Virus record (IMG/VR): IMGVR_UViG_2671181136_000006
DNA length: 64,000 nucleotides
From: a virus
Taxonomy: Duplodnaviria; Heunggongvirae; Uroviricota; Caudoviricetes
Strand: one strand, 5' to 3'
The translations under genes and the position numbers were made by a program. Below the pieces are notes generated by a model. The model was not told the DNA's origin. It did not search any database and saw only the letters and a program-made list of their open reading frames with translations. Of the stretch, positions 8,899-48,690 are shown one piece after another (position 1 is the stretch's first letter; every line of letters begins with the position of its first letter).

Positions 8899-9489
8899 CT
8901 ATTTATTATAAACAAAACCAATATCTTTCTTGTGAGGCATATCTGCTGCTGAAAAAGCTGCGATCTTCGCGAGTCGATCACATATTTCATTTTCACGATG
9001 CCCGGCGTGACCTTTAACCCACTTCCAGCGAACATTATGTCGACTTGCGGCCTCATCCAGACGCTTCCACAGATCAACATTCTTTACTGGTTTTTTGTCA
9101 GAAGTCATCCATCCATTGCGTTTCCACCATTTCATCCACTGTGTCATGCCGTTTTTCAGATACTGGCTATCAGAGTGCAAAATAACGTTGCATGGATATT
9201 TCAAACGCTCCAGCCCGATAAGTGCCCCCATCATCTCCATGCGGTTATTGGTGGTGCTATGAAAACCATCTGAGAACTCGCGTTCCTCACCACGATACTG
9301 GAGAACGATACCGTAACCGCCCGGGCCACCCGGATTTTTAAGGCAAGAGCCATCACTAAAGATTTTCACGGTTTTAAGCTGGGGATTGAACTCTACGACA
9401 GGCGTTGTGGGATTGGTGCGGGGGGAATTTTTGTTTTTGGCTTTTTTGCGAGTTTTTGCTTGCGATCGGGCTGGTGTCTTCGTCGTCAT
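8899..9489 (-). CDS. rnhA: ribonuclease HI
   Basis: FSDGSC..NPGxGGYG...TNNRMEMMG...DSQY...KGHAGH..NE.CD motifs near-collinear with E. coli RNase HI; start set to ATG 9489 preceded by AGGAG; basic N-terminal extension. Confidence 0.9.
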
Positions 9490-10071
9490 ATAAACTCCTG
9501 AATCAAGCGCCGCGCCGATTTTTCCTCGCGCGTGCGCACACGCGTGCGTGTTAATAATTATTAAAATAAACAAATTACTTCCCAGAACAGGTTTTTATAA
9601 ACCTGAACTGAACGAACGAAGTGAGTGAAGTTCACCTCGAACGAAGTGAGAGGTTGTCTTTTCAGGTAATACTCTCCCAGGGAGGTGAGTATAAAAATCT
9701 CTCACCAACCTGGTCGTTTCATAACCTGAAAAGTTATGGTCTAAGTCTACTGCCAGCTTAGACTTGGGAAGTTATGGATGACAGCACCCCAGAACCGAGA
9801 TCTTCCCACACTTTATGAAGGGGAGTACTGGATTCAACCTCTCGAAACACCCCAGACTCGACAATCATAAAGTGACCCTTGTCTCTGCTCACTTTGGTTC
9901 CCCCTTCCCCGACACCTAAACGGCACCAGTTCTACGCTGGTAGTGAGCTTTTTTAAACCTGACGCCAGTGACGCTTACCCCCACCCATCAGGTCGAGTCT
10001 CCAGTCTACGACTGGAAACTATCAGATCTTAGCACTTACAATTCACTTTATGAATAGTTTGTACTTATCTA

Positions 10072-10326
10072 TCATTGTGATTGATTATTTTCTCTACCAT
10101 GTAGTTGAACATTCAAGGCAAACACCTCATTGATCAACTCACCTAAAAGCTGTTCAACAAGTTCGCGATGCTCGCCAAGATGCAAGCACTTAATTGCCCA
10201 TTCGTACAAGTTGAAAGCCTGCTCACGATCTTTCATCATTTCACGAGCCTGGGCCAGAAAATCGCTCTCTACGAGCGCAACGACATTAGTCGGGTATGAC
10301 ATGTTGGTTTCCTTAAAGTGGTTCAT
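10072..10326 (-). CDS. hypothetical protein
   Basis: 84-aa ORF. Confidence 0.35.
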   Translation of the reverse strand: MNHFKETNMSYPTNVVALVESDFLAQAREMMKDREQAFNLYEWAIKCLHLGEHRELVEQLLGELINEVFALNVQLHGRENNQSQ

Positions 10327-10404
10327 AAAATCGATTTTAAAGCGTCTGGTAAGGGGTTCTAGTGGATTCTGTAGTGATGTTCAGGTCTGGAGTCTCTGAT
10401 ACAA

Positions 10405-10468
10405 AGCTGCCTGCTTCCGTATATTAATAATTAATATGTAGTTATTTATATATACAGAAGCAGGCTAA
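10405..10468. repeat. about 60-bp element: 14-bp inverted arms (CCTGCTTCCGTATA) flanking AT-rich spacer; second copy at 56495-56555
   Basis: direct sequence comparison of the two loci. Confidence 0.7.
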
Positions 10469-10487
10469 TTACAGACGCCAGAACAAA

Positions 10488-11081
10488 CTAAGCAGCCTTC
10501 TTTGATGGTCTTTTTTTCCTGATCACATTCGCAGGATCATACCCTCCCAGACTTTTCATGACGTCCAAAGGGATCTTGCTTATAGAGTGCCCAGCGTCCT
10601 GACAGAATCCTCGAAAAACAACGAGCATACTGCCACCTGGGTTGATGTTTACTTCTACCTGACCCAGATTTACGTCAGGCTCGACAAACGCTACGCGGCC
10701 ACCAGACAGAATAATCGTCTCATTCGCACACTCTGTTGCACGCTCATACCACTTTGTATCTAGGGATTGAGGAATTAGCATCACTGTTGTAACTCCGCGA
10801 GCCTGCTCACGTATAGCCGCATCAATCCAGGGGTAGATTTTGGAGTAGGGTGGATTGAGGAAGGCAATTGTACCTGGCTGTCCCCATTCAGATTTCAAAG
10901 CATCACGCTCAACGCCTATGAAATTAGGCAGCTTTGCATTGTCCTTGTTGCAGGCAACGTCAACATCAAATGTCACTCCAAGATAACGTTGAATGGCAGA
11001 AAACAGCCAGTCAGGTGTTCTCCAGAGGTCACGAAGAGAGTTGTCGCGCTTTCGCTGTTTGATTTTTTCGGCTGCAATCAT
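10488..11081 (-). CDS. dam: Dam-family phage DNA N6-adenine methyltransferase
   Basis: 197 aa; NPPY motif and overall pattern of the small phage Dam MTase family. Confidence 0.7.
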   Translation of the reverse strand: MIAAEKIKQRKRDNSLRDLWRTPDWLFSAIQRYLGVTFDVDVACNKDNAKLPNFIGVERDALKSEWGQPGTIAFLNPPYSKIYPWIDAAIREQARGVTTVMLIPQSLDTKWYERATECANETIILSGGRVAFVEPDVNLGQVEVNINPGGSMLVVFRGFCQDAGHSISKIPLDVMKSLGGYDPANVIRKKRPSKKAA

Positions 11082-47992: not shown

Positions 47993-48079
47993 TGGCGGAG
48001 AGTAATGGAATCGAACCATCATCGCTTGCGCAATGGGACGGTTTTCAAGACCGCTTGAGCACCATGCTCCCTACTCTCC
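47993..48079 (-). tRNA. tRNA-Ser (anticodon TGA), class II with long variable arm
   Basis: manual fold: 7-bp acceptor GGAGAGT/ACTCTCC, anticodon loop CTTGAAA, T-loop TTCGATT, encoded CCA. Confidence 0.75.
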
Positions 48080-48443
48080 GGCCGTTGTGGTGGCCGGTAC
48101 TGAATCTCCGGCATACGGTGCAGCCAATTAGGACTACGGACGATCACCGCTCGCGAAAGGGAAGATTTGCGGCCGCATTTCCCTAACATCCAAGAAAGCT
48201 ATCGCATCAGTCTGCGAATCCACCACAACGGTAAGATCACTACCTTTCGACCAGTCATTGTGCACATGAACGACGATTAACCGTAATGATCTTATCGTTG
48301 TGTTGTGAAGCCAGATGCTTATCTTCTGGTTGCCTCAAAGAGCTGCACTTCCTCACAACGGTAAGAGCACTGGTCTGACTCTATCGATTTACGGGCTTGT
48401 GGGTCAGTATCGCCGATTCGCCCAATGCACTTACCTGTTGTGT

Positions 48444-48519
48444 TGGTGCCGGTTAACGGACTCGAACCGCTGACATCCTGCTTACAAGGCAGACGCTCTA
48501 CCAACTGAGCTAAACCGGC
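48444..48519 (-). tRNA. tRNA-Thr (anticodon TGT)
   Basis: acceptor GCCGGTT/AACCGGC, D-loop AGCTCAGTTGGTAGAGC, anticodon loop CTTGTAA, T-loop GGTTCGAGTCC, CCA. Confidence 0.85.
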
Positions 48520-48523
48520 AATT

Positions 48524-48610
48524 TGGTGGGGAGTGATGGAGTCGAACCACCCGAGTCGCCATGACAGTAGATTTACAGTCTACCCCGCTGCCCCTACGGA
48601 CTAACTCCCC
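48524..48610 (-). tRNA. tRNA-Tyr (anticodon GTA), long variable arm
   Basis: acceptor GGGGAGT/ACTCCCC, anticodon stem GTAGA/TCTAC loop CTGTAAA, T-loop GGTTCGACTCC, CCA. Confidence 0.8.
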
Positions 48611-48615
48611 TAAAT

Positions 48616-48690
48616 TGGCGATGGTGGGTGGATTCGAACCACCGACCAGTTGGTTAACAGCCAACTGCTCTACCGCTGAGCTACACCATC
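48616..48690 (-). tRNA. tRNA-Asn (anticodon GTT)
   Basis: acceptor GATGGTG/CACCATC, anticodon stem GTTGG/CCAAC loop CTGTTAA, T-loop GGTTCGAATCC, CCA. Confidence 0.85.

Follow-up and report, generated by a model that had tools for sequence, protein, structure and literature searches.

The 64,000-nucleotide stretch of DNA analysed here (IMG/VR virus record IMGVR_UViG_2671181136_000006, hereafter the window) belongs, from comparison of the region with its relatives, to a phage-plasmid of the SSU5/pHCM2 type, and carries on its minus strand, upstream of the RNase HI gene rnhA, what is very probably a real, expressed gene for a structured non-coding RNA (ncRNA). Our favoured account, to which we give a probability of roughly 60%, is that of a stand-alone gene for a large ncRNA with a core of ~445 nt, whose product would act in trans in the lysogenic (plasmid) state of the element. 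A sequence-only reading of the window had singled out the gap between rnhA and the next gene as a non-coding island with internal repeats, and had offered a structured ncRNA, a packaging site or a secondary origin as candidates. The ncRNA candidate is the one supported by covariation, strand asymmetry, a conserved promoter, an island of conservation and published RNA-seq data, and nothing was found in favour of the other two; the region is transcribed and it is conserved among relatives, the two points on which that proposal had been made to depend.

A conserved minus-strand fold in a non-coding gap

The gap spans positions 9490-10071, between the rnhA ATG at 9489 and the stop of a 76-aa open reading frame (ORF) at 10072, and contains no conserved ORF, in keeping with the earlier description of a non-coding island. 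Its longest ORFs are 44-46 aa and are absent from several lineages, and among small ORFs of at least 10 aa in the gap none is frame-conserved across clades, nor are the candidates hydrophobic. We rejected coding readings of the gap (the 44-aa ORF, small toxin peptides) on account of the loss of these ORFs in lineages and the absence of a frame kept across clades; a type I toxin mRNA of the hok kind was rejected in the same way, with no ORF of at least 10 aa in frame across clades and no hydrophobic candidate.

All of the repeats, palindromes and C-rich tracts previously listed were found at their positions, and they coincide with parts of the RNA fold described below. The 13-mer direct repeat CGAACGAAGTGAG (9613-9625 and 9638-9650), for which we estimate a chance expectation of ~0.002 for an exact 13-mer repeat within 500 bp, forms the loops of helices P9 and P10; the inverted repeat GTCTAAG/CTTAGAC (~9740-9765) is P6; the AAGTTATGG copies (9731-9739 and 9769-9777) lie in P5 and P7; and the C-rich tracts (9899-9913 and 9978-9989) appear in the RNA as G-rich strands, which belong to P1 and to a candidate pseudoknot. 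The palindrome GTGAAGTTCAC lies at 9625-9635.

Covariance-model scanning and structure prediction, the checks suggested alongside the sequence-only reading, returned no Rfam match and a conserved fold of the minus strand. The fold was tested on 43 representatives from plasmids, viral contigs and metagenomes, following an earlier, smaller set of 18. In the set of 18, the RNAalifold consensus contained 100 pairs, 31 of them with compensatory double changes. Across the 43 representatives, standard pairs made up 99.5% of pair cells and changes on both sides occurred at 33 of the 100 pairs, compared with 2-6 when the 3' partners were slid by 1-3 columns, and none of 500 column shuffles came up to the real alignment in percent paired, in the number of pairs or of cells with changes on both sides, or in covariation score. 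Four of the pairs are G-U without exception (43/43 sequences), and at least six are so in most sequences; invariant G-U pairs become C-A mismatches on the plus strand, so that the fold fits the minus strand only. Consensus fold energies were -108.7 kcal/mol for the minus strand vs. -65.8 for the plus strand. Many loop and junction nucleotides are invariant, and the helices vary by compensatory substitutions.

The helices and domains of this fold are listed in Table 1. The hairpin at the predicted 5' end occurs in relatives as at least seven unrelated sequences, all of which fold at the same position, and would fit a stabilising stem at the 5' terminus. Within the five-way junction domain, compensatory pairs were found in every helix (P3, 2; P4, 3; P4a, 3; P5, 3; P5a, 1; P6, 5; P7, 1; P8, 3). 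As to the tandem hairpins P9 and P10, a divergent clade of relatives has an altered second copy of the 13-mer, in which only the loop core is kept; no further exact copy of the P9/P10 loop motif was found in the 64-kb window, where one-mismatch matches were at chance level, and a search of the element for a second copy of the RNA found none. Two candidate pseudoknots were noted. The first pairs GGGGG (9904-9900) with UCCCC (9824-9820), with one pair changed from G-C to A-U in 7/7 divergent-clade sequences; the second pairs the loop AGAGGUUG (9842-9835) with the complementary CAACCUCU (9656-9649), both of which are invariant, so that covariation is uninformative there. A GATC site lies in the invariant internal-loop segment GAAGAUCUCGG (9796-9802).

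Promoter, transcript ends and expression in lysogens

A promoter conserved in all clades lies at the 5' edge of the conserved fold (Table 1). The -35 element has TTTAAA, TTTACG or TTTACC as its equivalents in other lineages, and the TG one base upstream of the -10 element is present in most lineages, the pJN2-26-type Klebsiella sequences excepted. A promoter scan called the RNA promoter unaided in SSU5 (TTTAAA-17-TAAAAT with TG), and the transcript is predicted to start at A/G 10020/10019. In the E. coli clade only, a Dam site (GATC, 10025-10028) overlaps the -10 element, and a dam gene lies 500 bp upstream. In SSU5-type relatives (L002, L006, L028, L030, L069, L092, L093), a perfect 14-bp palindrome, GGTAAGTACTTACC, abuts the -35 element. 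The corresponding site (window ~10057-10070) is degenerate in the E. coli clade and reads TAAGTAA..TTTACTTA in the lineage with a second type of RNA described below; it is a candidate operator, or alternatively a terminator hairpin of the small ORF.

Features at the 3' side differ among clades. In the divergent clade, hairpin P11 and a U-rich tail scored as terminator-like. A G+C-only hairpin just upstream of the rnhA ribosome-binding site is conserved in the main clade, scores in SSU5 as a terminator for the opposite strand, and may serve as a terminator, a barrier or a stabiliser. Cronobacter sp. JZ38 has, on the minus strand between the RNA and the gene that follows (L005 2795-2912), a promoter-like site (TTGACT-17-TAAATT) together with a strong intrinsic terminator, and the two may constitute a further small RNA unit.

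We leveraged published RNA-seq data for Cyrano, a phage-plasmid of E. coli LF82 that is ~97% identical at the RNA region. There, a chance 44-aa ORF was annotated as CYRAN_81 and reported as a prophage "moron" (PMC9928086); CYRAN_81 is a spurious coding sequence (CDS) annotation inside the RNA, and its read counts can serve as an RNA-seq proxy for it. The published values (PMC9928086 Table 1 and S1 Table) are given as log2(FPKM+5), where FPKM is fragments per kilobase per million mapped fragments, and we read the conditions from the column names as bacteria alone at 1 h or 6 h (B1, B6) and bacteria in macrophages at 1 h or 6 h (MB1, MB6). CYRAN_81 reached 6.8/6.9 in lysogeny broth (LB), 9.3/9.0 in B1, 6.9/6.9 in B6, 9.0/8.2 in MB1 and 10.35/10.3 in MB6, compared with ranges across conditions of 3.1-5.8 for the upstream ORF (CYRAN_80) and 2.6-5.0 for RNase H (CYRAN_82) (PMC9928086). 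In LB lysogens the RNA region stands 12-fold above the prophage background, with the flanking genes near background (PMC9928086 data), and on a linear FPKM scale the RNA exceeds both neighbours by ~12-fold in LB and by 25-55-fold inside macrophages, where its level is highest after a rise of about ten-fold. The RNA is therefore transcribed, or accumulates, on its own in the lysogenic state.

Conservation and a second RNA type at the same slot

The 581-bp gap is present in 687 of 72,556 PLSDB plasmids, almost all of them non-mobilizable, from hosts including Klebsiella, Escherichia, Enterobacter, Salmonella (with S. Typhi pHCM2), Citrobacter, Cronobacter and Shigella. Among complete E. coli genomes it occurs in 232 of 5,426, with 232 places on plasmids and 2 on chromosomes, and in none of these copies is an RNA feature annotated. 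The region as a whole is 99.6% identical to Escherichia phage CMS-2020a; the figure is 98% for PhiR41_1 and Cyrano, and for Salmonella phage SSU5 and Klebsiella phage-plasmids it is 81-84%. Over the core (9576-10020), identity is 92.6% to SSU5, 92.6% to pHCM2 and 86.8% to pJN2-26, vs. 73-78% for rnhA, 74-78% for the small ORF and 75-76% for dam in the same comparisons, and for a neighbouring 269-aa protein the amino-acid identity among these lineages is as low as 54-58%. The RNA is also kept where the downstream gene is not rnhA, as in Cronobacter sp. JZ38 and K. pneumoniae T877 (L005, L007).

A divergent, Cronobacter-type clade, with ~68% identity over the BLAST-alignable part and 58% over the whole core, supplied most of the informative substitutions; more than half of the core positions are nevertheless invariant between it and the main clade. 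Pattern scans of viral contigs and metagenomes, and a plasmid search seeded with the divergent clade, recovered the same two clades only. Three viral contigs (L016, L025, L053) carry a 27-nt ACAACCTC-TCACTACGTTC-GAGGTTGT hairpin inside a 442-aa ORF, which we treated as chance.

The small upstream ORF has homologues in 728 plasmids, a total that exceeds the number of RNA carriers by about 40. A sister lineage in Klebsiella, represented by 30 plasmids (rep_cluster_2469 or rep_cluster_711), keeps the gene order of dam, small ORF, gap and a following gene (rnhA or another), but its gap contains a different conserved sequence, ~430 nt long, with a homologous palindrome and promoter upstream (TAAGTA..TACTTA, -35 TTTACT, -10 TATCAT). 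At its 5' side this type-2 RNA has a hairpin that covaries; compensatory changes also occur in its multi-helix fold, and at its end stands a canonical intrinsic terminator, likewise with a covarying stem. Similarity between type 1 and type 2, assessed by nhmmer and shared k-mers, is at chance level. The presence of an unrelated RNA at the same site behind a homologous promoter points to a slot for a stand-alone RNA gene that exists in discrete conserved types. In a Providencia relative, an ORF occupies the slot in place of an RNA.

Comparison with known RNAs

We scanned the whole window with Rfam 15 (4,227 covariance models, among them RNase P, transfer-messenger RNA (tmRNA), 6S, group I and II introns, GOLLD, ROOL, OLE, HEARO, C4, RNAI, ToxI and riboswitches). 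At the gathering threshold it contained three tRNAs only, and at E <= 10 the interval 9300-10500 gave only chance microRNA-type hits far below threshold; the divergent-clade copy and the type-2 RNA likewise matched no family. A tRNA or tmRNA identity of the island was rejected, and a literature search on SSU5/pHCM2 elements found no RNA described at the locus. By these comparisons the RNA appears to fall outside every described family.

Its nearest counterparts in architecture are GOLLD, ROOL and OLE, large "ornate" RNAs of bacteria and phages with unknown or partly known function that have been studied by cryo-electron microscopy (PMC12286853). The RNA described here shares with all three a length above 400 nt, many helices, multi-way junctions, strong covariation, invariant junctions, an abundant transcript and no obvious function, and shares with GOLLD and ROOL its carriage by (pro)phages. 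Unlike them, it shows no sequence or structure match to these families, belongs to phage-plasmids of Enterobacteriaceae rather than to Firmicutes or rumen phages, is not adjacent to tRNAs and is expressed in the lysogenic state.

The immunity RNAs of plasmid prophages and satellites (c4 of P1 and P7, CI of P4 and CA of N15) offer a different parallel, as they too are made in lysogens from a constitutive promoter, are co-directional with lytic or early genes, come in discrete types at one locus and display hairpin loops in duplicate. Expression in lysogens upstream of lytic-cycle genes, which marks c4 and CI, was found for this RNA as well (CYRAN_81, 12-fold above prophage background in LB). 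The c4, CI and CA RNAs are 70-200 nt in length, form simple stem-loops and have complementary target repeats in the same operon. The RNA here is in contrast 445 nt long with a five-way junction and is not matched by the Rfam C4 model, and a search of the 64-kb window (the remaining 46 kb of the element lay outside it) for antisense matches of 11-14 nt gave no more than shuffles did.

There is a further resemblance to the ColE1 RNA II/RNA I/Rop system, which involves RNase H: a length of ~500 nt, conserved stem-loops, G-rich tracts, an RNase H gene next door and an adjacent gene for a small helical protein. The locus differs from ColE1 in having no antisense promoter by consensus scan, in not lying at the initiator or origin, in a three-helix protein that is not Rop, and in retention of the RNA without rnhA. 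Finally, lambda 6S (from pR') and the HK022 put RNAs are, like this one, short constitutive RNAs heading a silent phage operon. Lambda 6S is 194 nt and unstructured, and HK022 put consists of two ~70-nt stem-loops, whereas the RNA here has a complex conserved fold and is retained when downstream genes change.

Structured RNAs of more than 400 nt with no assigned function are rare, and enterobacteria have been the most heavily mined of all bacteria, so the finding is unexpected. The RNA is widespread in clinical Enterobacteriaceae: plasmids with it are present in ~4% of complete E. coli genomes, and the Klebsiella, Enterobacter and Salmonella isolates that have them (S. Typhi pHCM2 being one case) number in the hundreds. 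It is more conserved than any neighbouring gene and among the few loci active in the dormant phage, in a region that present annotation leaves empty or fills with a spurious protein (CYRAN_81). Two unrelated RNAs alternating behind the same promoter provide a ready system for comparison by swapping or deletion, and the growth of the element in E. coli K-12 (PhiR41_1) makes the question experimentally tractable.

Proposed function and competing explanations

Judging from the sequence comparisons, the RNA probably functions in trans in the lysogenic state. A sigma-70 promoter, with an extended -10 element in most lineages, would drive a minus-strand RNA that begins with the covarying hairpin and folds into ~17 helices, including the compact five-way junction, and this RNA would act in trans while the element persists as a plasmid; we infer that it is neither a DNA site nor an rnhA leader. 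Its invariant exposed elements would be the recognition surfaces for a protein or RNA partner, with the two identical UCAC..CGUUC loops, which stand 25 nt from each other, and the segments AGAGGUUG and GAUCUCGGUUCUGGGG as the proposed recognition elements. That the trans action proceeds through binding of a partner is a tentative proposal, to which we give somewhat less than even odds. Because a sequence-unrelated RNA of the same size sits there behind a homologous promoter in the sister lineage, the slot looks like a type-specific regulatory or specificity determinant (for immunity, exclusion or incompatibility, or to control the silent early-gene block) or a ribonucleoprotein (RNP) scaffold, and the way in which unrelated RNA types replace one another behind a single promoter recalls immunity or incompatibility RNAs.

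Several observations weigh against this account. For RNA-seq evidence we depend on a single strain and on read counts over a 135-nt pseudo-CDS, and the libraries may not be strand-specific. Type 1 lacks a canonical terminator, so that the RNA could be the stable 5' part of a longer transcript into rnhA. Most of the double changes trace to one deep split between the main and the Cronobacter-type clade, so independent events are fewer than the cell counts. Complementarity of 11-14 nt in the 64-kb window was not above that of shuffled controls, a search that short loop-loop contacts would escape.

The most serious competitor, which we nonetheless regard as unlikely, is that the island is a cis-acting leader (attenuator, antiterminator or sensor) of the early-gene block from rnhA onward, or a stable processed 5' part of the operon transcript, with the abundant short RNA of lysogens as a terminated or processed product comparable to lambda 6S from pR' or the P4 leader. 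The RNA is co-directional with a ~28-kb one-way block of DNA-metabolism genes, and between the type-1 core and the rnhA ribosome-binding site there is no canonical terminator but an A/U-rich stretch followed by the G+C hairpin. On the other hand, the first downstream gene varies among relatives (in L005 and L007 a gene other than rnhA follows) and yet the RNA is intact, which is not the pattern of a riboswitch or leader; in the divergent clade a promoter-like site and a strong terminator separate the RNA from the gene that follows; and the type-2 RNA found in this slot has a canonical terminator at its end. Expression speaks both ways, as downstream genes rise in step with the RNA across conditions, at levels ~12-55 times lower, but so does the upstream gene, which cannot be read from the RNA promoter. 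At 445 nt and ~17 helices, the RNA is also far above the size of known leaders.

The tests made for the secondary origin once suggested for the island were negative, and a role as replication primer or origin element is very unlikely. Such an element would resemble ColE1 RNA II or the R-loop origins of T4 and T7, the RNA forming a lasting hybrid downstream and being processed by the adjoining RNase HI that the phage-plasmid encodes, so as to prime DNA synthesis. In most relatives rnhA does lie directly downstream, two G-rich tracts occur in the RNA, with an A/T-rich stretch and next a G+C tract after it, and the element has its own DnaE, DnaB-like helicase, ligase and FEN with no lytic origin annotated in the records examined. 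However, the RNA persists without an adjoining rnhA, GC skew shows no inflection at the island, and in a plasmid with a 100% identical RNA copy a RepB-family initiator gene lies ~17 kb away, relatives being typed IncFIB. An antisense partner of the RNA I kind would need a promoter on the opposite strand within the first ~110 nt; a simple consensus scan found no plus-strand promoter in 9880-10020, and the only plus-strand site nearby (10013-10042) fires away from the RNA, which is moreover high in lysogens while the surrounding replication genes are silent; nor is the small upstream protein Rop-like.

A catalytic or self-assembling RNA (a ribozyme, or a homo-oligomeric particle like ROOL, GOLLD and OLE) is improbable too, if marginally less so than a primer. 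By analogy, this idea draws on the size and dense helicity of the RNA, its five-way junction, the invariance of more than half of its positions between clades, the two pseudoknot candidates and a phage association like that of GOLLD and ROOL (PMC12286853). Against it, no ribozyme or ornate model in Rfam 15 matched even at E <= 10, and the tRNA cluster of the element lies 38 kb away, while GOLLD and ROOL often sit beside tRNA genes. A broader proposal, of a new class of large ornate RNA acting as ribozyme, self-assembling particle or RNP core with a type-specific function (immunity, exclusion or a dormant/lytic switch), is conceivable although we lean against it. The RNA would then be a core component of a clinically widespread phage-plasmid family, expressed in lysogeny and induced in macrophages, in a slot where sister lineages have another RNA just as elaborate. 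We know of no RNA that performs such a type-specific function with this architecture.

Least probable among the alternatives is a DNA-level element, either a fold of single-stranded DNA (ssDNA) serving as an initiation or priming site or single-strand promoter, or the protein-binding repeats of a packaging (pac) or partition-type site. Palindromes, and direct repeats spaced by 25 bp, are what one typically finds in protein-binding DNA, and folded ssDNA tolerates G-T pairs, so covariation alone cannot separate RNA from ssDNA. This explanation sits poorly, however, with a conserved promoter exactly at the 5' edge of the conserved fold, with an RNA-seq signal well above the neighbours, with selection on the single-stranded fold of one strand as read from the G-U pairs, and with the divergent clade, in which the second 13-mer copy is altered and the loop core alone is kept. 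In the linear records of SSU5 and Cyrano the site lies away from the ends, although record ends are weak evidence, and to our knowledge single-strand initiation (ssi) and pac sites are smaller than 445 nt and have no such multi-way junction.

We also rejected a type III toxin-antitoxin system of the ToxI kind. ToxI systems have tandem repeats of ~34-36 nt next to a gene for a ToxN/AbiQ-type endoribonuclease; here the island has just one pair of 13-nt repeats, spaced 25 nt apart, and is flanked by the genes for RNase HI and for a three-helix protein to which no family could be assigned.

Gene neighbourhood and other features of the element

All genes around the gap lie on the minus strand, in the transcription order dam methylase (10488-11081), 76-aa ORF, non-coding gap, rnhA (Table 1).

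Table 1 Features of the RNA locus and its neighbours, with positions in the window except where a relative (L number) is named
Feature	Position	Strand	Remarks
Type-1 structured RNA, conserved core	9576..10020	-	~445 nt, ~17 helices; RNAalifold, covariation, conservation
-35 element, TTCATA	10049..10054	-	17 nt upstream of -10; same alignment columns in all lineages
Extended -10 element, TGcTAAGAT	10026..10034	-	TAnnAT in every lineage despite variable surroundings
5'-terminal hairpin	10000..10016	-	Directly after predicted start; folds in all lineages; same as inverted repeat I23
P1, 13-bp hairpin	9957..9993	-	G-rich 5' strand GAUGGGUGGGGG; four compensatory pairs; one pair G-U in 43/43
P2 domain	9888..9947	-	Includes G-rich segment GGGGAAGGGGGAA; 3/5 P2 pairs covary
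Five-way junction domain	9664..9879	-	P3 (9879-9877 with 9666-9664) encloses P4-P8; linkers 0-3 nt
Tandem hairpins P9 and P10	9604..9653	-	Loops UCAC(N2-3)CGUUC, invariant across clades; P10 stem covaries at 3 pairs
3' end region	9551..9591	-	Small hairpin P11 (9591-9581), then A/U-rich variable spacer; conservation stops ~9576
G+C-only hairpin, in alternating CG/CA tract CGCACGCGTGTGCGCACGCGCG (9501-9548)	9501..9541	-	Just upstream of rnhA ribosome-binding site; predicted stable
Chance 44-aa ORF inside the RNA (CYRAN_81 in phage Cyrano)	9758..9892 (= L004 3357-3491)	-	Absent in several lineages
Upstream neighbour, 76-aa three-helix protein (phrog_5343)	10072..10302	-	Always adjoins the RNA slot; functional link to RNA only putative
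Downstream neighbour, rnhA (RNase HI)	8899..9489	-	Outside RNA element; Pfam RNase_H, E = 1e-44
Type-2 structured RNA	L153:2766-3205; L154:2766-3203; also L155-L159		~430 nt; Klebsiella phage-plasmids, outside the window

The 76-aa protein is confined to the SSU5/pHCM2 phage-plasmid group and has three helices in its AlphaFold model (predicted local distance difference test, pLDDT, 79). A Foldseek search against the PDB returned no match with E < 5, and no family was found; a Rop-like identity was rejected on the three helices and the lack of a PDB fold match. A genome-collection scan seeded with this ORF recovered two Kluyvera loci of the main clade. Between its start and the dam stop codon, at 10401-10455, lies a near-perfect long A/T-rich palindrome (CTGCTTCCGTATAT...ATATACAGAAGCAG), which is the source of the spurious microRNA-type Rfam hits and could be a terminator or an operator.

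In the RNase HI, a Lys/Arg-rich N-terminal extension of ~40 aa precedes the catalytic domain (the Pfam match covers residues 40-178). In K. pneumoniae T877, rnhA is reduced to its first few codons, marking a recombination junction just downstream of the RNA. The SSU5 gene SSU5_090 ("Rnase H", 765 nt; L002 2415-3179) is an annotation artefact, in which an upstream start was called and the frame runs through the G+C tract toward the RNA.

Elsewhere, the element encodes dnaE, a DnaB-like helicase, ligase, FEN, recA, nrdAB, thyA and dfrA51, as well as four tRNA genes (Ser, Thr, Tyr, Asn) and metG (window 47993-48690; L150, L151). The RefSeq relative NZ_CP023851.1 has a further unannotated gap of 1.5 kb at record positions 74967-76516, outside the window.

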